Assembly (NCBI GenBank): GCA_000004695.1
Contig: CM000154.2
Coordinates: 2,688,001 to 2,752,000, forward strand
DNA from: Dictyostelium discoideum
Lineage: Eukaryota
Length of the DNA stretch: 64,000 nucleotides
Reading direction: 5' to 3'
The position numbers were made by a program, and so were the translations under genes. Shown in pieces: positions 36,332 through 49,233 of this stretch; position 1 is the stretch's first letter; each line of letters begins with the position of its first letter. Under the pieces are notes generated by a model that was not told where the DNA came from, searched no databases, and saw only the letters and a program-made list of their open reading frames with translations.

Positions 36332-39148
36332 ATTTTTTAGTTTGTAAGTTAACTAATTAAAATTTTTTTTTCTTTTTATAAAATAATGATTAGATTCCAT
36401 TAAGAAGATTAATGTATTTATTGTTAAAAGAATTATCAACAATTTCACAAGATGCAATCATTGTTATCAGTTCATTAACAAAAGATATGTCACATAAGAT
36501 TGAATTATATAGAGCAAATGCAATTAGAATTTTATGTAAAATCACTGATGTATGTGTTGTTTATTTTTATTTTTCTACAAGAGATTTGTTTATTAATGGT
36601 GTTTTTGGTTTTTATTTTTTATTTGTTTTTTTTTTAAATTTAATAGAGTTCAATTTTACCACAAATCGAAAGATACTTTAAACAAAGTATTGTTGAAAAA
36701 GATCCACACGTATCATCAGCAGCACTTGTTTCAAGTATTCATTTATTAAAGGTATGTCCAGAGATTGTAAAGAGATGGGCAAATGAAGTTCAAGAAGCAA
36801 TCTCAAATAAATCAAATATGGTTCAATATCATGCATTAGCATTATTACATAGAATTAAACAACATGATCGTTTAGCAGTCTCTAAATTGGTTAGTAATTT
36901 AATTAAAAATTCACTTCGTTCACCATATGCTCAATCATATTTAATTAGATGTTGTGTTGAAGTTATTGAAGAGACAAATACAGAGTAAGTTTCAAAAAAA
37001 AAAAAAAAAAAAAATCAAAAAAAAATCAAAAAAAAAATCAAAAATCAAAAATCAAAAATTCATTACTAATTTAAAATAATTTAAAAATAAATAGAGATAG
37101 AATTTTCCGTGAATATATTGAATCATGTTTAAGAAGTAAGAATGAAATGGTTGCATATGAAGCAGCACGTTCAATTTGTACATTTAAAAATGTTTCAAAT
37201 AAAGAAATTAACTCTGCTGTTGGAGTTTTACAAAACTTTTTAAATTCAACAAAACCAACTTTAAGATTTGCTGCTGTTCGTACATTAAATAAGGTAATTA
37301 TTTTATTTATTTATTTATTATTTTTTTATTTTTTCATTTTTACTAATAAATTAAATCAAAATAATTTTTTTTTTTTTTTAGTTAGCACAAACTAATCCAA
37401 CAGCAGTTATACCATGTAATTTAGATATGGAAAATTTAATTACAGATACAAATAGAAGTATTGCAACATTAGCAATTACAACATTATTAAAAGTTGGTAA
37501 TGAATCAAATGTAGAGAGATTAATTAAACAAATTGCAAACTTTTTAGGTGATATCAATGATGAATTTAAGATTGTTGTAGTTGATGCTATTACATCACTT
37601 AGTCAAAAGTTCCCAAAGAAATACAAACATTTAATTATCTTTTTAAATAAGATTCTTAGAGATGAGGGTACATTACAACTTAAACAAGCAACATTGGATG
37701 CAATTTTAACAGTGGTAAACAATATTCCAGAATCAAAAGAGATTGCATTGACCGAATTATGTGATTACATTGAGGATTGTGATTTCCCTGATCTCTCTGT
37801 ACAAATTCTTCATTTAATCGGTCAAGAGGGTCCATTAACTTCATCACCAGCTCAATACATGAGATACATTTACAATAGAGTTTTATTGGATGGTGGAATC
37901 ATTCGTGCTGCCGCAGTTACATCAATTGCTAAATTTGGTCTTCTCTATGAACCAATGAAAGAAAAGGTTGTCATTCTTCTTCAAAGATGTCTTTTGGATG
38001 AAGATGATGAAGTTCGTGATAGAGCAACACTCTATCTTAAATTATTCAAAGAAAATGATGTTCGTTATCTCAATAAAGTACTCATGGATGATGTACCTGT
38101 ACCATTGAACAATTTACAAAAGAGTTTAGAGCTTTACTTACATCAAGGTGATTTTAGTGAACCATTTGATATCGCCTCTGTTAGTACCGTGGTTGAAACT
38201 TATCAATCACCACTTCTCGGTGATGGTAAATCACCATTCTCAACTGGTGCCTCTAAAAAAGGTGATTCTGTCACTGGTACACCAAAATCAAACAATGCCT
38301 CAAACAACAACAACAACAACGAAGAATCATCAGGCCCAGAATCATTTGCTACTAAACTCTCTCAAATTCCACAATTTTCAACTTTTGGTAAACTTTTGAA
38401 ATCAAGTGAATACATTGAACTCACTGAAACTGAAACTGAATATGTTGTCAATTGTGTTAAACATATCTATCGTGAACATATCGTATTCCAATTCAATTGT
38501 ACCAACACTCTCAATGAACAACAATTATCAAATGTATCTGTTAAAATGGTACCTTCCGATCCAAAATTATTAAAATATGAATGTTCAATCCCAATCGATG
38601 TACTCCCATACGGTGAACCACAACAATGTTATGTTGCCATTCGTTACATTCCTGCCAATGGTTATCCATTATGTTCATTCAGTAATGCCCTCAAATTCAA
38701 AGTTAAAGAAGTCGATCCATCCACTGGTGAACTCGATGAACCAGGCTATGATGATCAATACAGTTTAGAGAGATTGGAAATCGTTCCAAAAGATTTCCTC
38801 AATAGAGCTTTCGTTGGTAACTTTTCCGAGGAATGGAAGAAAATGTCTGAAGATACCCAATTAGTTCAAACCTTTTCTTTAGTTGGTGTTAAATCTATCG
38901 ATGAAGCTGTAAAACAAATCATTAAAACATTAGGTATGGCCCCTGCTGAAAAATCTGAAGTTGTCACTCCAAAATCTGCCAAACATATCCTTTATCTCAC
39001 TGGTAAATCATTAAATAATCAATTGATTTATGTTAGAGCAAGAATGAAGTTGGATCAATCTCAAACTAATACTGATGTAGAATTAACAATTAAATCCGAT
39101 GATGAATCATTAAATGATTTTGTAATTTCTGCTTTCATTGAAAAATAA
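36036..39148 (+). CDS. copG: Coatomer (COPI) gamma subunit, about 898 aa; exons 36036..36272, 36394..36549, 36647..36984, 37095..37293, 37382..39148
   Basis: Near-collinear with human COPG1. Matching blocks: [48 protein letters not shown] | [36 protein letters not shown] | ..[37 protein letters not shown].. | [35 protein letters not shown] | [82 protein letters not shown].. and the appendage domain. Donors are GTAAGG/GTATGT/GTAAGT/GTAATT with consistent phases. Confidence 0.9.
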
Positions 39149-39389
39149 ATTTAAATTAAAGTTAATAAAATAAAATAAAAAATAAATAATAAAATGGTAA
39201 ATTAAAAAAAAAAAACCTAAATCTATTTTAATTCTATTTTTAGTTATTTATTTTTTAATCTGCATTTTTCTCAGCTTAATTATTTCTTAAATCTCTAAAA
39301 AATAAAATTATAAAAAACTTAATAAAAATTAAAAAAACCTAAGAATATAATCTATTTTATCCTGTAAAAAAACTTTGTTTTCAACAAAT

Positions 39390-39462
39390 GCCCAGATAGC
39401 TCAGTCGGTAGAGCGCAAGGCTTTTAACCTTGTGGTCGGGGGTTCGAGCCCCCCTTTGGGCG
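39390..39462 (+). tRNA. tRNA-Lys (anticodon UUU)
   Basis: The 73-nt sequence GCCCAGATAGCTCAGTCGGTAGAGCGCAAGGCTTTTAACCTTGTGGTCGGGGGTTCGAGCCCCCCTTTGGGCG folds as a cloverleaf with a 7-bp acceptor stem including one G-U pair. It has an A box TAGCTCAGTCGG, anticodon loop CTTTTAA, B box GGTTCGAGCC and discriminator G. No CCA is encoded. A T6 Pol III terminator follows at 39465-39470. Confidence 0.9.
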
Positions 39463-39707
39463 AATTTTTTAGATGGAAGAATTTGATCGTAGGCTCGATT
39501 CCTAATCTAACCAATTAATATTATTTAAATTGTTTCTTTTGTGAATGAATCAAAGGAAAACTGTTAAATGTAATAACCATCTTTGGTTTATAATCTACAG
39601 AGAGGAATATTCATTAAAAGGCAATATTCCATTCTTTTGCTCTAGAATTAACATTATCGCACCTTCTAAATATGGTAACTTCTATTATAAAAAATATCAA
39701 AAAATCC

Positions 39708-39752
39708 ATAAATAAATCTATTAATTATTGTTAATTTCCTTAATGGATAAAC
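39708..39752 (+). repeat. 45-bp dispersed repeat ATAAATAAA(TC/AT)TATTAATTATTGTT(A/T)ATTTCCTT(T)AATGGATAAAC; second copy at 44034..44079 directly abuts the 52-nt poly(A) end of the retroelement
   Basis: The two copies are about 90% identical. Copy 1 lies 246 bp downstream of tRNA-Lys with no poly(A). Copy 2 forms the last unique bases before the poly(A) at 44081-44132. Confidence 0.6.
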
Positions 39753-40187
39753 TCTGATTAATCAATATTAAAAAGGCCTTGGAGTTTATTCCATATTAAA
39801 TTCAATGGTTTACATTTTTTTTGTCCTTCTTTTTATCTTTTATAAAAAAAAAAATCCTGTAGAAGGAGATCCATCTTTATTTTTAATAATTGCTTTTTAG
39901 AATTTGTATTACATTGTTTAATATTAATAAGTTTTAATAATCATAATATAAATAATAGTAATAATAATATTAATGATTAACAATTAAACAATAACAATTA
40001 AAAATAATAATTTATTTAGTTTTAGAGTTTTCGTTCAAAACTTATAAGTTGAAAATAACGAAAACTGAAAAAAATGAAAAAAATAATTCACGTTTTACAG
40101 CATTCATAATATTGTGTGTTCATTTATTTATTAAGATCAATACATCTAAAATTCCGAACTTCGGATTGTAGGAAATTATTCAAAAAG

Positions 40188-40259
40188 CTCCCTGTCCGGG
40201 AATTGAACCCGGGCCTTTCGCGTGACAGGCGAAAATCCTCACCACTAGACCAACAAGGA
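40188..40259 (-). tRNA. tRNA-Asp (anticodon GUC)
   Basis: The reverse complement TCCTTGTTGGTCTAGTGGTGAGGATTTTCGCCTGTCACGCGAAAGGCCCGGGTTCAATTCCCGGACAGGGAG is 72 nt. It has a canonical Asp-type D loop AGTGGTGA, anticodon loop CTGTCAC, T arm CCGGGTTCAATTCCCGG and a paired acceptor stem. A T5 run follows immediately on the minus strand (plus 40178-40185 region). Confidence 0.9.
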
Positions 40260-40300
40260 TATTTTAATTGGAAAAATATTAAATTTTTTTTAATAAAAGA

Positions 40301-40567
40301 GTAAGAGAAAAAACATCAACAACAACACTTTTTTTATTTGATTATTTCATTTTTCATATAAAAAAAAGACTTAAAAAAAATAAAATAAAATACACTTAGA
40401 ATAAACTACTTTATTTCTTTATTTTATTGTAATTTATTTTTTTCTTTTTTTTGAAAATTTTGCGAAGCAAAATTGAAAAAAAAAGGAAAAAATAATCAGT
40501 AAGAGAAAAAACATCAACAACAACACTTTTTTTATTTGATTATTTCATTTTTCATATAAAAAAAAGA

Positions 40568-40578
<11 letters not shown>
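40301..40578 (+). repeat. Two direct copies of an ~80-bp module (GTAAGAGAAAAAACATCAACAACAACACTTTTTTTATTTGATTATTTCATTTTTCATATAAAAAAAAGACTTAAAAAAAA) spaced 197 bp apart
   Basis: Direct comparison of 40301-40380 with 40498-40578 shows essentially identical sequence. The second copy runs into a 32-nt poly(A). Confidence 0.8.
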
Positions 40579-40615
<37 letters not shown>

Positions 40616-40692
40616 CCGAAAACATTCTTTCAGGGAATTTCCAGAATTTTAAATTTTTAAAGTCGAATAAAGATTTTAAAGAAAAAAAAGAA

Positions 40693-41790
40693 ATGAATAA
40701 ATTGGCAAATACAATAATGACAGAATCAACAGAAACATTGGCAGATAAAATCAAGAAATCAAATGAACTCAGAACAAAGTTCAAATATTTAAAAAATACG
40801 TACAGAACACTTGATAAAATAAGCGAAGCAATATACCACACTCAAATTGAACTAAAACAATATAAATTCATGATCAATATCCCAGATGAGATTTCCAACA
40901 ACTTAAAAGCAGAATTGGAAATTCATTTACAAGGAGATGATAAGATAATAATAAGTAAGAATAAATTCAAAATCCTAACTGACTGCAGAACTCAAGTAAT
41001 CAAGTACTCTAACGTTTTCAACGGAGTACTAAAAGGAGTTCACAGAGCAATAATAAAACCAAAAAAGATCTTCAAAACATTCAACTGGGAAAAATCAATG
41101 GACATAGTAGAAAAAACATTGCATGAAGAAGGACTGGAAATAATCAAATTAGATAATTTAGGTGAAAACCTGATAATACACTCATTCAACTCAATTATCA
41201 GTCCAGAGCACAAAGACCAGCTAATACATTGTAAACACATAACAATACTATTCCTCACTACAACAGAAGAAACAAAAAATCAAAGAAAAACAAATAAGGA
41301 AATCGAAGACGAAATCTCAGAAAATTCAAAAATCACGGAACTACCAAATCCCGAGATAAAGGAAAACACAAGAATAAACATAAAATCAAAAGAAGAATCC
41401 AACCATAAAAACACTAGCGAATCAAAAAATAACAACAAAAACAAAATAGAAAACAGAAAAGAAAATAATAAAGAAATCAATAATGACAACATCAAAGACA
41501 AGAGCAAAAACGAAAAAGTAAAGGAAAACGAAATTGAAAATAAAAAACCCACAACAATTAGAGCAACTACAACAACCACAACGACAGAAACGACAAACAC
41601 AATAAACAATATTGAAAAGAGAAAAGTACTTCGTGTCCCACCAATAACAGTAACATATAGTGTTGACAGCAAAGAGAAAAGGAAAATGGAGTTAACTGAA
41701 GATGAAGAAGCATTAGAAGTGGTAAGAAAGATGTTCGAAAATGAAGAAGAGAACAGAATTTTTGAAGAAAAAATAAATAACCTGTTGTAG
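40693..41790 (+). CDS. Retroelement ORF1-like protein (365 aa, Lys/Asn/Glu/Thr-rich); function unassigned
   Basis: Intact ORF MNKLANTIMTESTETLADKIKKSNELRTKFKYLKNTYRTLDKISEAIYHTQIELKQYKFMINIPDEISNNLKAELEIHLQGDDKIIISKNKFKILTDCRTQ.. It has A-richer coding composition than neighbouring host genes. It is flanked upstream by duplicated modules and downstream by hairpin repeats plus oligo(A), and sits next to a tRNA gene. Confidence 0.35.
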   Translation: MNKLANTIMTESTETLADKIKKSNELRTKFKYLKNTYRTLDKISEAIYHTQIELKQYKFMINIPDEISNNLKAELEIHLQGDDKIIISKNKFKILTDCRTQVIKYSNVFNGVLKGVHRAIIKPKKIFKTFNWEKSMDIVEKTLHEEGLEIIKLDNLGENLIIHSFNSIISPEHKDQLIHCKHITILFLTTTEETKNQRKTNKEIEDEISENSKITELPNPEIKENTRINIKSKEESNHKNTSESKNNNKNKIENRKENNKEINNDNIKDKSKNEKVKENEIENKKPTTIRATTTTTTTETTNTINNIEKRKVLRVPPITVTYSVDSKEKRKMELTEDEEALEVVRKMFENEEENRIFEEKINNLL

Positions 41791-41985
41791 GGAATTTTCC
41801 ATAAAATTTCACTACAGTAGCGTAGTGAATTTTATTATTTAATTTCACTACAGTAGCGTAGTGAAAAAAAAAAATCACTGACCTTAAATTTTTTTTTTTT
41901 TCAAAAAACAAATAAAGTTTATTAAATTGAAATTTTATTTTTTGTTTTAATTATTATTTTATTTATTTTTATTATAATTATTGTT

Positions 41986-42025
<40 letters not shown>

Positions 42026-42066
42026 CAATTTTTTTTTTTAAATTTTTTTCAATTTTTATTTGTTTA

Positions 42067-42166
42067 NNNNNNNNNNNNNNNNNNNNNNNNNNNNNNNNNN
42101 NNNNNNNNNNNNNNNNNNNNNNNNNNNNNNNNNNNNNNNNNNNNNNNNNNNNNNNNNNNNNNNNNN
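42067..42166. other. Assembly gap (100 N)
   Basis: A run of exactly 100 n characters. The true length and content are unknown. It lies inside the repeat-rich retroelement region. Confidence 0.99.
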
Positions 42167-42790
42167 ACCTTAAAAATTACCTTTAAAATTACCTTTAAAA
42201 TTACCTTTTTAATGGCTTTAAAAGCGAGGTCCTGAGTTCGAATCCGTTATTTAACGGATAAATTTTTTAAAATTTTTTTTTTAATTTTTCAAAAATTACC
42301 CAAAAGGGATTCGATCCCCCGACCCTCTATCAAAGGGTAGTCTCATCAACCATTACACCATTTGATTGCTTTGATGAAAAATTTAAAAATGATAGAATAT
42401 TTTATCCCCATTTTTTTGTGCTAAAATTAGATCTTTTTTATTAAAAACCTTAAATTTATGTTTAAAGGAAATTTAAATTCACTTTAAATCTACTTTTAAT
42501 CTACTTTAAATCCTATTTAAAATTAATTTAAAATAAATTTTAAAGGTATTTTTAAATATCTTAAAAATTATCTTAAAAATTACCTTAAAAATCACCTTTA
42601 AAATCACCTTTAAAATCACCTTTAAAATTGCTTAAAAATTTATTTTAAAGCAAATTTTAAAGGCATTTTTAAATATCTTAAAAATTACCTTAAAAATTAC
42701 CTTAAAAATGAATTTTTTAAACGCGGCTTTAAATTCAATTTAAATCCAATTTAAATCAACTTTTCTTTAAATTTGCTTTAAAGGTGCATT
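42167..42790 (+). repeat. Arrays of tandem short AT-rich repeats (units ACCTTTAAAATT / TACCTTAAAAAT / TCACCTTTAAAA / AATTTAAATCCA)
   Basis: ACCTTTAAAATT repeats three times at 42171-42208. TTACCTTAAAAAT / TCACCTTTAAAA repeat three times at 42560-42640 and again at 42680-42710. AATT(C/T)AATTTAAATC repeats at 42460-42530 and 42730-42770. The arrays flank tRNA-like fragments. Confidence 0.7.
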
Positions 42791-43079
42791 TTTCTTTGCT
42801 GTGAAATAAAATTCAACGATAACACTACAATAATAACAGAGAACCAAATAATTCATAAAATCAAAAAAGCGAGAGATGCCGAATGGGATAGAACAAGAAA
42901 GATAGTAGAAAAACAACTACGTCAAGAACTAAGATGCACTGATAACCGAGAGTCAATCAATCGGACCGCATCAATAAAAAGAAGACTCGAAAAATTCAGC
43001 CACAACTGGAACTCGAAACTCATGACCATAAACATCCCGGAACACTTCATACCATACTGCTCATATAACACCAACTACT

Positions 43080-43113
<34 letters not shown>

Positions 43114-43197
43114 ATAACAATAATAATAATAATAATAATAATATAATAATAATAATATAATAATAATAATAATAATAATAAAAATAAGAATAACAAG

Positions 43198-43241
<44 letters not shown>

Positions 43242-43269
43242 AAACTCTCCTAGAACACACTCAAATTGA

Positions 43270-43641
43270 GTGATGTTATTAAAAAAAAAAAAAATTTTAA
43301 TAAAATTTCCAATTCAAATAACCTCTAGGCAAATCTTTGAAGCGATCTGGAAAAAAAGAAACAAATTTAAACATGATAACACAACCATACTCATCCACAA
43401 AGAGCAAATAATAAACACACTCAAAAAAACTCAAAAAGCTGCATGGGACAAAACAATATCAAACATTAACAAACTAATCAGAATACGAACCAACAACCAA
43501 GGAGATGAAAAGAAAAAAACACAAACAATCTCAAGAGCACTCCAATATGTCAGCAAACAATGGAACTCCCCACTCAACAAATCAAAATTACCACCACACT
43601 TAAACCAATTGATCACTACCATTAACACACTCTTTGGGTAA
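43270..43641 (+). CDS. Short retroelement-associated ORF (123 aa), paralogous to an ORF fragment at 42833..43083; possibly 5'-truncated element 3' ends
   Basis: 43270-ORF ..HDNTTILIHKEQIINTLKKTQKAAWDKTISNINKLIRIRTNN..VSKQWNSPLNKSKLPPHL aligns with 42833-frame ..NNTTIITENQIIHKIKKARDAEWDRTRKIVEKQLRQELRCTDN..FSHNWNSKLMTINIPEHF. Each ends at a stop followed by an A-rich or (ATA)n tract. Confidence 0.3.
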   Translation: MMLLKKKKILIKFPIQITSRQIFEAIWKKRNKFKHDNTTILIHKEQIINTLKKTQKAAWDKTISNINKLIRIRTNNQGDEKKKTQTISRALQYVSKQWNSPLNKSKLPPHLNQLITTINTLFG

Positions 43642-44078
43642 AAAATAAATAAATAAATAAATAAGTAAATAAATAAGTAAATAATCAATAATAATAATAA
43701 TAATAATATTAATAACAACAAAATAATAGCAATATAACAACAAAAAAAAAAAATAAAAAATAAAAAAAAAAAAAAAAAAATAATAATAAAAGGAAACTAA
43801 CCCTCTTTCAGAGGCCCTGTAAATATATTACAAATAAAATGAGATCAAGGAGATGCAACTCAGAATTGGGCTATCCCATTCAACAAAACAAAATTAATAA
43901 AATATTTAAAAAGATTAAATTAAAATAACAAACCAAGTTGGAAATGGTCCTTTAATTGTAAAAAAAAAACCTAACAATATTCATTACCACACATCCCACA
44001 CCCAAGAAATAATACTTTACTTTTTAAAATACATAAATAAAATTATTAATTATTGTTTATTTCCTTTAATGGATAAAC

Positions 44079-44135
<57 letters not shown>

Positions 44136-44173
44136 AACCAATCTGGATTGGGAAATCAATTTTTATTTTTTTA

Positions 44174-47100
44174 TTAATTACTTTTAATTTGTTTTGGAGT
44201 TATATCAAGACCAATTACATTTTGAATGAAATCTAAAATATGATGTTGTTTATGATAATGACATTCTAAAATTAATTTTTTAAAACTAATTTTTGAGAGG
44301 AAACCTTTTCTAGCGAATAATAAAGATTTCTTATCGAAAATGAATTGATGATTATAAAAAATATGTTGAAAGATATTAATTCTACCATAGATCGAAGCTT
44401 TTGATAGAAGAGAAGAGAAATGACGTTGACATTGTGAGAAACAAGCTCTAGATTCTCTTTCATCTTTATCGAGTAAAGTTAGTAACTCTGATTGTTGTTT
44501 CATTAGGGGTATACAAGATCTGATGTATTTTTCAAGTGCGACGACATCACCATATTTACCAATATCATCCAATACCAACGCCAAACCAACTGGCATAATT
44601 TTCTTTGAACCTTCATTAGTATCATCATAGTAATAACCTTTTCTTAATACGATATCCAATCTACCAGCTCTGTACAACATATGACTTTGAACGGATTGAG
44701 TTATAACACATCTACCACCAATTAATAAATCTTCACTACGATTTTCAAATATCCAATCAAAGAATCTTTTAAGATGAGTTGATTCTTGAAACATTTGTTC
44801 TGGATAATATTTTAATTCTGTACCTTCCAAAATGGTTGAAAAACTTGAAATTATCTCTTGGAAAATTAATTGTCTCTCTATATTTAAATTTAATAATGGT
44901 TCACCCGATGAAGTAGTTGGTGATAGTATTGCAGAGAGTAATAGAATTTCATTGGTTACAATTGTATATAAACCATATGGATCTTCAACTATATAAGCCA
45001 ACATTTTCAAATAGTTATTATAATTCTTTAAAGAAGAACCCCATTCAAATATGAAATGAAAATCATCGAATGAAGCTCTAACTTTTTTATTTGATACAAT
45101 TATACCTTTATCCATATCATCAAGTACCATTAATTGATCATATTTTCTTAATAGTTCAACATTTTGAAAACCATAAAAATCGGCTGTTAAAGAATTTGAT
45201 TGTGGTAAATAAAAATGATCTCTAAAATTTGAAAAACAAAATTCTAACATTTCAATTGATCTAATAAATCTTGGAATTTTTAAATTATAAATTTCACTAT
45301 TACTTTTTGCAATATAACAAAAATTTGAAATTAATGGAAATTCTTTAATAACAATTGATAATAATTCTAAATTATTATTTTCAATTATTAAATAAAATAA
45401 TAATAATCTATCTAAAATTCCACCAATTACTGTACCACCATTACCATTACCATTACCATTACTATTACCATTTTCAATTGATGAATTATAAATTTTTTTT
45501 ATAAATTTTAATTGTTTATTTAAATTATTTGGTGAAACATATTTAAATAAAAGATTTGGAGTGATTTCATTACGATATTTATTTGAAAGGAAAGCATATT
45601 TCATTTCAACTTCTTTATATTCAATCCAATAACCTGGTGAACCATATTTTAAAGATTGTTTAAAACAATTTGAATCAAAAACTCTGGTTACTCTATAATC
45701 GAATAGATCTTCATCATCCAAGTCTTGATCATAACAATTTTCATTACCATAGATTATTTTATACATAAAATTACAATAAACTTTTAGATGTGGATTAAGT
45801 GAAACGTAAAGTTCAGCTAACCTCTTTATACCATCATAATCTTCTTTTTCACCATCTTTTAATAACTGTTTTTGAATAACCTTTTTAACAAAACAATGTT
45901 TTTCTTCTTTTGTAATTTGAGTTTCAATAAATTCAATCTCTGCCATTGTATTGATTGTAAATGATGCTTGAGTAATCTCTTCCTCTTCTTCATTATCACT
46001 ATCTTCATAATGTCTTTTATAATATTGTTGTTGATATTGATTCTTTAAATCAAATGTAACAATTAGTTTACATGAATTTATTAATTGTTTAATTGTAAAT
46101 TGATTAAATACTGTTTTAGTTTTAATTTTTGAATATTCAATTGTATTATTTGATAAATTTGAATTATTATTATTATTGTTATTATTATTATTGTTATTAT
46201 TGTTATTGTTATTATTATTATTATTATTGATATTATTATTATTATTATTATTAATATTATTATTAAAAGTAAAAGAATTTAATAAATTTGAATAATTGAA
46301 AATTTGATTTTTTAAATTTTTATTAAATTGTAAAATATCATTTTCATTATTATCATTAATTAATTTTGCATCGGCAATTACTAAATTTATAATATTTGAA
46401 TAAGTGAATAATCTTAATTGAATTAATAAATTAATGATTTTAATTGATGGATTATTAATTTTTGAAAACATTTCAATATCAAATGGTTTATTATTTGGAT
46501 TTAATGACATTTGACGATGAATGGTTGTTACGATTAATTTCACCATTTTATAAGACCCACTCTTAATAGCCAATTGTAATGAATGATTCATAACTGGTCT
46601 AAATTGGAATTCCGATATCAATAGCTTTGTTGCAACCAAACAATTACATTCAATAGCTAATGAACCAACTAAATAAATATCGATTGGATATCTTTTATTA
46701 ATTCTATCAAATATGAATTCTGAATAATTTGTAAAGAGGTCCCTATAGAATGACTTATCTTGAATGGATCGAATTGAATTGAAAATCTTTTTAAACATTT
46801 TACAAAATTCATATTTTGTATTTTGATCTTCATCATCATTCACATCACCATCATTAATGGTATTATGATTACAAAATACCAATAAATCACCTCTACTAAC
46901 TTTATATTTTAATAATCCGAAATAATTTGAATCTACAATCCAAGATACATGAATGATTTGATCATATTTAAATGTTTTACTAAATATATAATTATAACAA
47001 TAAAAGAATTTATCATCACTTGAGGTCATTGGTGAGGATGATGATGACGTTGTTGTCATGGTACTTTGTTGTTGTTGTTGTTGTTGTTGCTGTTGATCAA

Positions 47101-48382
47101 AGAAACCACCTCTTGATAAATTACCAATAATCTTTCTAAATAATACAATATTTCTAAAAATTCTCCAAAATAATTGTTCTAAATGTTCAATATCTTTAAT
47201 TGGTAAATCATAGATTGTACTATTGTTTACTAATTTTTTTGAATTTGATTTTTGTTGTTGATTCTTTTCACTTTGATATTCTCTATACTTTTGTTTCTTT
47301 TTCTTATGATTTTCAATGAATGATTTAATCCTCTGAAATGTTTCACCCTTTGTATTGTTACCCATTGGGACACCCAAAGTTTTACCAATTTTTCTTAATT
47401 CCACTGCTGTTAATTTCTCTAATTTTCTAATATCAATACCTTTTAAAATATTATCTAAATAAATTTCATCATCTTTATATTCATCATTATGATATTCTTT
47501 TTTTCTTTTTAATCTTCTTAATTCATTAATTCTTTCATTTTCTGTTTGTTGTTGTTGTTGTTCTTGTTGTTGTTGTTGTTCTTGTTGTTGTTTTGGTTTT
47601 AACTGTTGGTGTATTTGTGGTAATAATGGTATTGGTGGTGGTGGTGGTTGTTGTTGTTGTTGTTGTTGTGGTGGTGGTTGTTTAGATTTTTGTTGAATTT
47701 GTTGTAAAGATTGTGAAGAAAGTTGTTGTTGTAATTGTGATTGAGATGATTGCTTTTTTAATTGTGATACATGAATTTGTTGTGAGAATCTATTATTTGG
47801 TGGTACGAAATTTTGATGAGTATTTATTAATTCTTGATAATCATTATGTCTCTCTAATAAATCTAATTGCTCTTGATTTCTTCTTTGTAAAAGTTGTTGT
47901 CTCTCTAAAATTTGTTGTCTTTGAATTTGTTGTTGAATTTCAATTTGAGTTTGATACTCTTCTTTTGAAATCTTTAAATTATTAATATCATTATCATTTT
48001 CATTTGAATTATTATTATTAGGAAGAGGAGAAGGAGTAGAAGAAAGAGAAGGAGTATTTAAATTATTTTGAATAATTAAATTATTTATAATTGGTGGCGA
48101 TACAATTTGTGGTGGTTGTACAGTTGTTGTGGTTGTTGTGGTTGTTGTGGTTGTTGTTGTAGTTTTTGTTGTTGGCAATATTGTTGGAGGTGCTATTGTA
48201 GTTGTTTGTGGTGGTGATGGTGGTGATGGCGGTGATACAATTTGTGGTGGTTGTACAGTTGTTGTTGTTACATTAGATATTGGTTTTGGTTGGAAAATGT
48301 TTTCATTATTTTTTATAAAATTTATTTGTGGTGGTGCCACAGTTGTGGTATGAGGTTTTTTCGAAGCCTCTATATCTTTCAT
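44174..48382 (-). CDS. Large low-complexity protein (1402 aa) with a SAP DNA-binding motif; function unknown
   Basis: Single long ORF. The N-terminus has Thr/Pro repeats (TVQPPQIVSPP twice, Thr14). There are polyQ blocks and a SAP-like helix-loop-helix LEKLTAVELRKIGKTLGVPMGNNTKGETFQRIKSF. A central polyN (>40 residues) is present. The C-terminal 600 aa is non-repetitive (..YPIDIYLVGSLAIECNCLVATKLL.., ..GRCVITQSVQSHMLYRAGRLDIVLRKGYYYDD..) with no motif I can assign. Confidence 0.7.
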   Translation of the reverse strand: MKDIEASKKPHTTTVAPPQINFIKNNENIFQPKPISNVTTTTVQPPQIVSPPSPPSPPQTTTIAPPTILPTTKTTTTTTTTTTTTTTVQPPQIVSPPIINNLIIQNNLNTPSLSSTPSPLPNNNNSNENDNDINNLKISKEEYQTQIEIQQQIQRQQILERQQLLQRRNQEQLDLLERHNDYQELINTHQNFVPPNNRFSQQIHVSQLKKQSSQSQLQQQLSSQSLQQIQQKSKQPPPQQQQQQQPPPPPIPLLPQIHQQLKPKQQQEQQQQQEQQQQQTENERINELRRLKRKKEYHNDEYKDDEIYLDNILKGIDIRKLEKLTAVELRKIGKTLGVPMGNNTKGETFQRIKSFIENHKKKKQKYREYQSEKNQQQKSNSKKLVNNSTIYDLPIKDIEHLEQLFWRIFRNIVLFRKIIGNLSRGGFFDQQQQQQQQQQSTMTTTSSSSSPMTSSDDKFFYCYNYIFSKTFKYDQIIHVSWIVDSNYFGLLKYKVSRGDLLVFCNHNTINDGDVNDDEDQNTKYEFCKMFKKIFNSIRSIQDKSFYRDLFTNYSEFIFDRINKRYPIDIYLVGSLAIECNCLVATKLLISEFQFRPVMNHSLQLAIKSGSYKMVKLIVTTIHRQMSLNPNNKPFDIEMFSKINNPSIKIINLLIQLRLFTYSNIINLVIADAKLINDNNENDILQFNKNLKNQIFNYSNLLNSFTFNNNINNNNNNNINNNNNNNNNNNNNNNNNNNNNNSNLSNNTIEYSKIKTKTVFNQFTIKQLINSCKLIVTFDLKNQYQQQYYKRHYEDSDNEEEEEITQASFTINTMAEIEFIETQITKEEKHCFVKKVIQKQLLKDGEKEDYDGIKRLAELYVSLNPHLKVYCNFMYKIIYGNENCYDQDLDDEDLFDYRVTRVFDSNCFKQSLKYGSPGYWIEYKEVEMKYAFLSNKYRNEITPNLLFKYVSPNNLNKQLKFIKKIYNSSIENGNSNGNGNGNGGTVIGGILDRLLLFYLIIENNNLELLSIVIKEFPLISNFCYIAKSNSEIYNLKIPRFIRSIEMLEFCFSNFRDHFYLPQSNSLTADFYGFQNVELLRKYDQLMVLDDMDKGIIVSNKKVRASFDDFHFIFEWGSSLKNYNNYLKMLAYIVEDPYGLYTIVTNEILLLSAILSPTTSSGEPLLNLNIERQLIFQEIISSFSTILEGTELKYYPEQMFQESTHLKRFFDWIFENRSEDLLIGGRCVITQSVQSHMLYRAGRLDIVLRKGYYYDDTNEGSKKIMPVGLALVLDDIGKYGDVVALEKYIRSCIPLMKQQSELLTLLDKDERESRACFSQCQRHFSSLLSKASIYGRINIFQHIFYNHQFIFDKKSLLFARKGFLSKISFKKLILECHYHKQHHILDFIQNVIGLDITPKQIKSN

Positions 48383-48532
48383 TTTCGTTCGATAAAATTA
48401 AAAAAAAAAAAAATAAAAAAAATAAAAATAAAAATAAAACATTTGCAGAAAAAAAAAAAAAAAAATTCAAAAAAAAATAAAAATAAAAAAAAAAAAAATT
48501 ATTAGTTTTTCTTTATAGATCTTGGTGATTTT

Positions 48533-48563
<31 letters not shown>

Positions 48564-49233
48564 CAATGAAAAAAAAAATAAAAAATTTAAAAAAAATTAA
48601 GATCTTTGATGAGTTAATCATAAATCAATCTTAAAAAAAAAAAAAAAAAAAATATTATTTTCAAATAAAATTAAAATCGAATTAATTTAATTAATAATAA
48701 TTAATAATAAATAAAAAAAAAAATAAAAAAAATTAACTTTTATAAACTTAAAAAAATTATAAAATAAAAAAATAAAAAAAAAGATTTTATTTGAATTAAT
48801 TATTTAAATACATATTTAATACATGTTGTTATTTAAATCATTTTTTTAAGTTTTTTTTTTATATTTTTATTTTTTTTTTTTATTTAAATAATTAAAAATA
48901 TTTCAAACCAAGCTCGCACACACACCAATCATCCACATAAATATATAAAAAAAATAAGAATATCACCACATTTTTTTAATTCTCCATATAAGTACAAAAA
49001 ACTAGTTATGTTTTACACATAAAATCTTCAATTTAAAATTTTATTTTATTTTTTATTTTTTTTTATTTTTTTTATATTTTTTTAATATTAAACTCCCTTT
49101 AAAAAAAAAAAAAAAAACTATTATTTAAAAATAAAATCAAATTAATACATAGAAAATAAAAAATCAAATAATAACATTACAAAAAAAATAAAAAAAATAA
49201 AAAAATTAAGTAAATTATAATTATCGATCTTTG

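Follow-up and report, generated by a model that had tools for sequence, protein, structure and literature searches.

Stacked retrotransposons targeted to transfer RNA (tRNA) genes are already a known and well-understood feature of the Dictyostelium discoideum genome. Elements of the TRE5 group lie at an expected distance from the tRNA gene (PMC5911963), the element's 5′ end being turned toward the 5′ end of that gene (PMC5391098). TRE5-A has the arrangement AB-ORF1/ORF2-BC, in which A-, B- and C-modules frame two ORFs (open reading frames), and carries isoleucine at residue 10 of ORF1, the position of the I10* mutant (PMC3159450); its ORF1 primers Rep-190 and Rep-109Q are also available (PMC5391098, S1 Table). 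In TRE5-C, the C-module is ~78% identical to that of TRE5-A and the 3′ B-module is missing (PMC3159450), and the structure of TRE5-B has been described as well (PMC3159450, PMC4559204). TRE5 elements are further expected to have two ORFs, with an APE endonuclease, a reverse transcriptase and a zinc finger in ORF2, and to show a poly(A) tail and target-site duplications of variable length, which are signs of target-primed reverse transcription. TRE3 elements are expected to share the orientation of a tRNA gene and to lie 40-150 bp downstream of it. Here, we analyzed a locus on chromosome 5 of D. discoideum AX4 at which retrotransposon sequences have accumulated upstream of a tRNA-Asp(GUC) gene, using a stretch of 64,000 nucleotides (GCA_000004695.1, contig CM000154.2, positions 2,688,001 to 2,752,000, forward strand; G+C 22.7%), which is called the window throughout. 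The locus is a textbook case of a compact genome in which tRNA genes offer retrotransposons a safe place to land, and the only mildly new points are a correction of the assembly and a small DNA transposon with terminal inverted repeats (TIRs).

For comparison, 12 loci labeled L001-L012 (~320 kb of Dictyostelium DNA) were used. The syntenic locus in the gap-free assembly GCA_054883475.1 (L008) was reached via an exact protein match of the downstream 1402-aa ORF, and the orthologous loci of other strains were obtained via the coatomer gene.

Insertions upstream of the tRNA-Asp gene

The block from 40299 to 44132 very probably arose by at least three independent target-primed retrotranspositions into the upstream spacer of tRNA-Asp(GUC), followed by one DNA-transposon insertion. 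Nested or serial insertions had been proposed in a preliminary description of this DNA, and three pairs of target-site duplications (TSDs) together with a site that is empty or differently filled in other strains bear this out. The convergent tRNA-Lys/tRNA-Asp pair named there was recovered by both ARAGORN and Rfam, with the 3′ ends of the two genes 723 bp apart. The tRNA genes and the parts of the block, including the untranslated regions (UTRs) at both the 5′ and the 3′ end of the youngest element, are as follows:

39389-39463, plus strand: tRNA-Lys(UUU) (ARAGORN; Rfam tRNA 72.6 bits)
40187-40259, minus strand: tRNA-Asp(GUC), the insertion target (ARAGORN; Rfam 61 bits)
40288-40298: left TSD of the youngest element, TTTTAATAAAA, with the identical 11-mer at 43295-43305 directly after the element's poly(A)
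40299-40692, plus strand: 5′ UTR, first bases GAGTAAGAG, 98.5-99.5% identical to five other copies
40693-41782, plus strand: ORF1, codons 1-363 of 454, colinear with the long-read assembly up to 41782
41783-42066: 284 non-colinear bases, first bases TGTTGTAGGG, including a T52 run and a hairpin present twice in identical form
42067-42166: assembly gap, 100 N
42167-42803: non-autonomous TIR DNA transposon in ORF2, right-hand 637 of 760 bp, ends CACAGCAAAGAAAAA...TTTTTCTTTGCTGTG
42804-43084, plus strand: last 93 codons of ORF2 with the stop at 43082-43084, colinear with the long-read assembly
43085-43294, plus strand: 3′ UTR of A-/AAT-rich DNA, unique end CAAATAAACTCTCCTAGAACACACTCAAATTGAGTGATGTTATT and A14
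43295-43305: right TSD of the youngest element, TTTTAATAAAA, whose last 9 bases (43297-43305) double as the left TSD of the next element
43306-43893, plus strand: 5′-truncated TRE5-C-like 3′ end with the 9-bp TSD TTAATAAAA at 43297-43305 and 43894-43902
43306-43641, plus strand: ORF2 C-terminal remnant therein
43642-43791: A-rich DNA therein
43792-43893: C-module-like end therein
43903-43942: surviving piece of the original upstream spacer of tRNA-Asp, colinear with the empty site of L011
43943-44132, plus strand: oldest insertion, 190 bp, composed of 137 bp from the 3′ end of a poly(A) retroelement plus A53 (44080-44132)

The strain comparison supports serial insertion. In strain L011 (14168-14215), the base corresponding to window position 40296 joins that of 43902 directly; this is the empty site, from which both younger elements are absent and in which the old remnant is present. 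In strain L010 (14184-15235), the same site holds a TRE5-A-type fragment consisting of ORF2 end, B-module and C-module as well as a TRE5-B-like 3′ fragment with the TSD ATAATGAAAAAGCT, again followed by the old remnant, which is thus common to all three D. discoideum strains compared. With L011 empty and L010 differently filled, tRNA-Asp has therefore been hit repeatedly and independently, as expected for a TRE5 target, and the serial insertions lie in what is a known hotspot. Being polymorphic between wild strains, the site could serve as an insertion-age marker.

The TSDs point in the same direction. A duplication around the whole block, recommended for checking at about 40296 and 44132, was looked for and not found; each of the three elements has its own. 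The chance of the 11-mer match around the youngest element is ~5e-6 per position pair. The oldest remnant is flanked by AACAAACCAAGTTGGA on the left (43927-43942) and ATCAAACCAATCTGGA on the right (44132-44147), which match at 13 of 16 positions. Its terminal poly(A) is present as described earlier, with 53 A rather than 52.

The youngest element starts at 40299, 40 bp from the 5′ end of tRNA-Asp (40260-40299), and points away from it, so that the start noted before at about 40 bp upstream holds. Its 5′ UTR contains one 198-bp A-module (40300-40497), after which the initial 91 bp of another such unit follow (40498-40588). The duplicated 5′ module seen previously corresponds to 40300-40390 versus 40498-40588 (97.8% identity, 198-bp period). 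Further parts of the 5′ UTR are an internal run of A42 (40571-40612) and sequence resembling a B-module, which reaches the start codon of ORF1. Identity of the 5′ UTR to the A/B modules of TRE5-A type in L003 amounts to 77%. Multiple A-rich internal ends had been taken to suggest nested or serial insertions; the A42 run belongs to the 5′ UTR and is not the end of an element.

Other copies in L001-L004 are 98.5-99.5% identical to the element, and L006 and L007 contain a related variant. Full-length copies have a common start GAGTAAGAG, a common end ...GAGTGATGTTATT(A)14-15 and TSDs of 9-12 bp, the range also found in L002-L004; the L002, L003 and L004 copies end alike and then continue into unrelated flanks. 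At the protein level, the ORF2 end at 42804-43084 is 98.9% identical to those of L002, L003 and L004. The suggested TRE5-class integration upstream of tRNA-Asp fits these copies, as the distance from the element start to an opposite-strand tRNA gene is 33-50 bp (window copy; L001-L004, L006, L007) and the element 5′ end is directed toward the tRNA 5′ end in seven of seven copies examined. The number of tandem 198-bp A-modules varies from 1 to 5 per insertion (L001 9220-9814; L003 8817-9807; L004 8821-9816; window 40300-40588), and the same 91-bp partial unit closes the array in every copy, ahead of the internal poly(A).

The assembly gap and the adjacent non-colinear bases

Over 11.2 kb of flanking sequence, the window and GCA_054883475.1 agree with 0 mismatches, and the sole differences are the lengths of the poly(A) tracts at 40571-40612, 43198-43234 and 44080-44132, which are longer in the reference by 6, 12 and 11 A, respectively. 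Therefore, both assemblies represent the same strain lineage. Colinearity extends over window positions 37385-41782 and 42167-48999. Between these segments, 41783-42066 and the 100 N at 42067-42166, the single N run in the window, stand where the gap-free assembly has 3,624 bp, which cover the last stretch of ORF1, the greater part of ORF2 and 123 bp at the left of the TIR element. This supports the previous assumption that the gap leaves out some of the element. The length of ~3.8 kb given for the block is an artefact of the gap, because ~7.2 kb lie between the same end points in the gap-free assembly.

In that assembly, the element reads without interruption from the 5′ end until 93 codons are left to the ORF2 stop; a 760-bp insertion comes next, and then the remainder of the element. 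The 5′ modules, ORF1 and the first of the two A-tailed ORF remnants are therefore one element. The two remnants (42804-43084 and 43306-43641) are indeed related, with 37% protein identity, but the first, rather than being an insertion of its own, forms the main element's 3′ end. The intact element has an ORF1 of 454 aa and an ORF2 frame of 1173 aa with matches to RVT_1 (E = 5e-37) and, weakly, to Exo_endo_phos (18.5 bits, below the Pfam cut-off of 24.5 bits); in the window itself, the greater part of ORF2 is lacking. Compared with intact copies, the syntenic copy shows a 1-nt deletion in ORF2 (L008 18811) and an A-run at the ORF1/ORF2 junction that is 8 nt shorter (L008 16008). Its ORF2 is probably non-functional even without the TIR insertion, with long-read homopolymer errors as a possible source of such differences. 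Hit by the 760-bp TIR insert and a frameshift in ORF2, the window copy is therefore dead.

The ORF, hairpins and tandem repeats listed in the preliminary description were all found again (40693-41790; 41808-41829/41844-41865; 42167-42208 and 42472-42757). The open frame in the window (40693-41790, 365 aa) contains an ORF1 sequence that matches a D. discoideum AX4 protein cluster (P0001) at 100% identity. One member, Q9GQ50, is named only 'Group-specific antigen'. Another, DDB_G0289387 (364 aa, annotated 'partial'), equals the window ORF up to base 41784; this partial coding sequence (CDS) is a truncated retrotransposon ORF1. The upstream neighbor of DDB_G0289387 is COPG (coatomer gamma), whose protein accession comes immediately before. 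An exact look-up of the 365-aa truncated ORF1 returned no record, and in a Pfam scan neither the window ORF1 nor either ORF remnant had a match above the threshold.

The 284 bases at 41783-42066 probably represent the end of a contig that was misplaced in the reference assembly. They contain the two identical hairpins with 8-bp stems (41808-41829 and 41844-41865; TTCACTAC-AGTAGC-GTAGTGAA), which had been counted among the parts of the insertion and are located in sequence not colinear with the locus. Neither the gap-free assembly of the same strain nor any of the 12 compared loci has a counterpart of 41783-42066. It is possible, if doubtful, that these bases are the end of a real element, e.g. 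a long terminal repeat (LTR) terminated by TG or another transposon, in the ORF1 of the sequenced AX4 subline. The junction is sharp, the sequence opens with TGTTG as many LTRs do, its base composition is typical of Dictyostelium, and laboratory strains have active retroelements (PMC3159450). However, the gap-free assembly lacks such an insertion despite the flanks without mismatch, in the reference the CDS breaks off as 'partial' at 41784, in the manner of a contig boundary, and no second copy was found in the ~320 kb searched. The AX4 reference is wrong or incomplete at this position, ~3.6 kb being missing and 284 probably foreign bases being included. Some of the apparent disorder midway through the block is an assembly artefact of the reference, in which 3.6 kb of ordinary element are replaced by a gap and the 284 foreign bases.

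Families and order of the retrotransposons

The main element, i.e. the youngest one, appears to be TRE5-B, judged by its described structure and not by reference-sequence alignment. In four copies, its 3′ end ...GAGTGATGTTATT(A)n follows straight after A-rich DNA, and neither a B-module nor a C-module was found in the 3′ UTR at 43085-43294; this is the 3′ structure of TRE5-B. For a TRE5-B ORF1, an identity of ~25% to that of TRE5-A would be expected. The ORF1 of the main element begins with MNKLANTIMT and thus has threonine at residue 10. A second family in L003 and L010 shows an ORF2 end and poly(A), then a B-module and the ORF1 start MKITNNTTNI, then poly(A) and a C-module; this succession fits TRE5-A, as does the isoleucine at residue 10 of this ORF1 type. 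The ORF1 homologues P0003 and P0004 were considered as TRE5-C and rejected; they represent a TRE5-B-like variant with 83% identity at the ORF2 end.

That the main element could instead be TRE5-A, the abundant and well-studied family, is very unlikely. A- and B-type 5′ modules are present, the ORF1 of 454 aa (~51 kDa) has the size given for TRE5-A ORF1 (PMC5911963), and at least seven near-identical ORF1 copies occur in AX4. This assignment is opposed by Thr10 and by the primer sequences Rep-190 and Rep-109Q, both absent from the window and L001-L005 with up to 3 mismatches allowed. B- and C-modules are missing from the 3′ end in four of four complete copies, and the separate family with ORF2-B-C and the I10 ORF1 start already exists in L003 and L010.

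The second element (43306-43893) fits TRE5-C on the basis of a C-module without a B-module, in agreement with the published structural description. Its C-module-like end is 74-78.5% identical to the TRE5-A-type C-modules in L003 and L010, and only low-complexity A-rich DNA without a B-module lies between the ORF2 stop and the C-module. A homologue search with the ORF remnant 43306-43641 gave no matches; therefore, the family was derived from the C-module and from tblastn against the comparison loci, where the ORF2 ends of TRE5-A-type copies and that of the main element share 34-37% identity with the remnant.

For the oldest remnant, the last ~50 bases match a TRE3-type 3′ motif. A further remnant of this type lies in the spacer between the two tRNA genes, which includes the following features:

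39492-39502: B-box-like motif GGCTCGATTCC, 28 bp 3′ of tRNA-Lys, kept in three strains (window, L010, L011)
39590-39775 (start approximate), plus strand: TRE3-type non-LTR 3′-terminal remnant, ~125 bp downstream of tRNA-Lys in the same orientation
40150-40165: palindrome AATTCCGAACTTCGGA, 3′ of tRNA-Asp, kept across the three strains

The remnant at 39590-39775 is absent from the other two D. discoideum strains. It has the terminal motif CTATTAATTATTGTTaATTTCCTTAATGGATAAAC in common with the 3′ ends of tRNA-downstream elements in L003, L004 and L002, and its position is that expected for TRE3. Conservation of the inter-tRNA spacer between strains is limited to the parts nearest each tRNA gene. 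Candidate external B boxes are GGCTCGATTCC, which follows tRNA-Lys, and the palindrome AATTCCGAACTTCGGA, which follows tRNA-Asp. An Rfam scan of the block revealed no real RNA family beyond the two tRNA genes, and microRNA-like matches merely reflect an inverted repeat. In D. cf. discoideum (L012 14401-14473), tRNA-Asp lies on the opposite strand relative to tRNA-Lys.

The following order of events is proposed. The short poly(A) remnant (43943-44132) would have inserted first, its distance upstream from tRNA-Asp being ~79 bp on the reconstructed empty site. Subsequently, the 5′-truncated TRE5-C-like copy (43306-43893) would have inserted ~39 bp upstream. The full-length TRE5-B-type element (40299-43294) may then have entered at almost the same nucleotide, duplicating TTTTAATAAAA including the older TSD, and finally the 760-bp TIR element would have entered the ORF2 of this copy. 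Each newer element would thereby have settled between its predecessors and the tRNA gene. For the two younger insertions, the order is based on their positions and TSDs. According to the literature, TRE5 ORF1 protein would contact TFIIIB, which is placed on the tRNA gene by TFIIIC, the ORF2 endonuclease would nick ~40-50 bp upstream, and reverse transcription would be primed from the 3′ end of the element. A fixed orientation, a poly(A) tail, TSDs and frequent 5′ truncation would be the expected outcome.

It is highly improbable that the whole block (40299-44132) arose in a single event, as a chimeric complementary DNA formed via template switching or 3′ transduction, with reverse transcription beginning on one RNA and moving on to others. 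Such an origin would agree with the three parts having the same orientation and abutting from poly(A) to 5′ end, with the joint absence of the first two parts from L011, and with the suggested gain of the TRE5-A C-module by 3′ transduction (PMC4559204). It conflicts with the separate exact TSDs, 11 bp around 40299-43294 and 9 bp around 43306-43893, and with the absence of a TSD flanking the whole block. Moreover, the 40 bp between parts 2 and 3 (43903-43942) are original spacer, colinear with the empty site, and part 3 occurs alone in L011, and in L010.

Serial insertion of members of these families has points against it as well. The oldest remnant bears a 3′ motif of TRE3 position and yet lies upstream of tRNA-Asp, in TRE5 orientation and ~79 bp away, and no plus-strand tRNA gene is found within TRE3 range of 43943-44132. 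The TSDs are AT-rich, and the pair with 13 of 16 matches is weak alone. L011 lacks both younger elements, so strain data alone give no order. The family letters B and C rest on the structural descriptions in the papers rather than on alignment to reference TRE5-B or TRE5-C. Compared with TRE5-A-type copies, the C-like module has a 9-nt deletion in its hairpin region that removes one arm, and its last 55 nt fold at -7.3 kcal/mol (z = -0.94), no better than shuffled sequence; TRE5-A-type ends fold at -11.1 kcal/mol (z about -2.1), and a 3′-terminal stem-loop resembling theirs would be expected for TRE5-C.

The TIR element in ORF2 and comparison with known systems

The insert at 42167-42803 is a non-autonomous TIR DNA transposon. 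Its full 760-bp copy is found in the gap-free assembly (L008 19236-19995), and a second copy with 81% identity occurs at L007 10695-11447. The terminal 15 nt of the TIRs are perfect and ~25 of the first 27 positions match, followed by weaker inverted similarity that reaches ~170 bp inward and is made of 12-bp tandem repeats. Tandem repeats of 11-12 bp are present at 42167-42208 and 42472-42757; these and the tRNA-like pieces had been assigned to a retroelement and instead belong to the TIR transposon. The window insert has a 2-bp TSD, AA, and the intact copies represent the empty site with a 2-bp overlap. For the L007 copy the TSD is TC, and this copy interrupts ORF1 of a TRE5-B-like element in another strain. 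Being inside ORF2, the TIR insertion must therefore be later than the retroelement. Both copies seen sit within TRE5-B-type retrotransposons at different positions (ORF2 in the window, ORF1 in L007). An ORF search of the insert found none.

In its center, the element contains an inverted pair of B-box-like motifs at 42234-42257 and 42306-42325, which is kept in both copies. The earlier 'tRNA-like fragments' are correct insofar as two inverted motifs resembling a B box or T-arm exist, but the likeness is weak, the tRNA model scoring 13.6 bits versus a gathering score of 29. The B-box consensus is GGTTCGAATCC. We regard as extremely unlikely a tRNA-derived short interspersed element (SINE) or a decayed tRNA-gene pair that itself attracted retroelements, because the two motifs (each 10/11 positions of the consensus), their preservation in the second copy and a full-length but weak minus-strand alignment to the tRNA model are countered by perfect 15-bp TIRs, the lack of poly(A), a 2-bp TSD with empty sites, the position inside ORF2, the score below the 29-bit threshold and the absence of any tRNA found there by ARAGORN. 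Also unlikely, if somewhat less so, is that this TIR transposon is an undescribed miniature inverted-repeat transposable element (MITE) that prefers TRE5-B-type targets and whose B-box-like pair would bind TFIIIC. If true, a DNA transposon would exploit or interfere with the same RNA polymerase III machinery by which TRE elements are targeted.

DDT, thug and Tdd are described DNA-transposon families of Dictyostelium; the 760-bp insert was compared with the TIR class by features only. It resembles non-autonomous TIR transposons of the MITE or foldback type in its TIRs, long subterminal arrays of short repeats, lack of an ORF, short TSD and presence in at least two copies. In comparison with the well-known superfamilies, a 2-bp TSD without a fixed dinucleotide (AA, TC) is unusual.

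Among the retrotransposons, the remnants 39590-39775 and 43943-44132 resemble TRE3 (e.g. TRE3-A, formerly Tdd-3) in sharing the 3′ end ...TTAATTATTGTTTATTTCCTTTAATGGATAAAC, and elements with this end in L003 and L004 sit downstream of tRNA genes, ~90 bp away. The remnant at 43943-44132 differs from TRE3 in lying upstream of tRNA-Asp and downstream of no tRNA gene. The second element resembles TRE5-C in its C-module, with 74-78.5% identity to the TRE5-A type versus a literature value of 78%, and in the missing 3′ B-module, with only the last 590 bp being present. With TRE5-A (formerly DRE), the main element shares the target site, the orientation, the presumed TFIIIB/TFIIIC-guided target-primed mechanism and A/B modules with 77% identity. 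Its ORF1 is related, as Rep-109Q encodes DTIIELDNL versus EIIKLDNL in the main element, which differs from TRE5-A in having Thr10 instead of Ile10, no primer sites, no 3′ B-C and an ORF2 C-terminus with ~34% identity. It resembles what has been described for TRE5-B: an insertion ~40 bp 5′ of the tRNA gene with the 5′ end turned toward it, a 5′ UTR built of modules that are homologous to TRE5-A-type A/B modules, and two ORFs, with an endonuclease-like region and a reverse transcriptase in ORF2, followed by poly(A) without a 3′ B-module or C-module. Nothing contradicts membership of the main element in TRE5-B, the window copy being one whose ORF2 was disrupted by the 760-bp TIR element and a 1-nt deletion.

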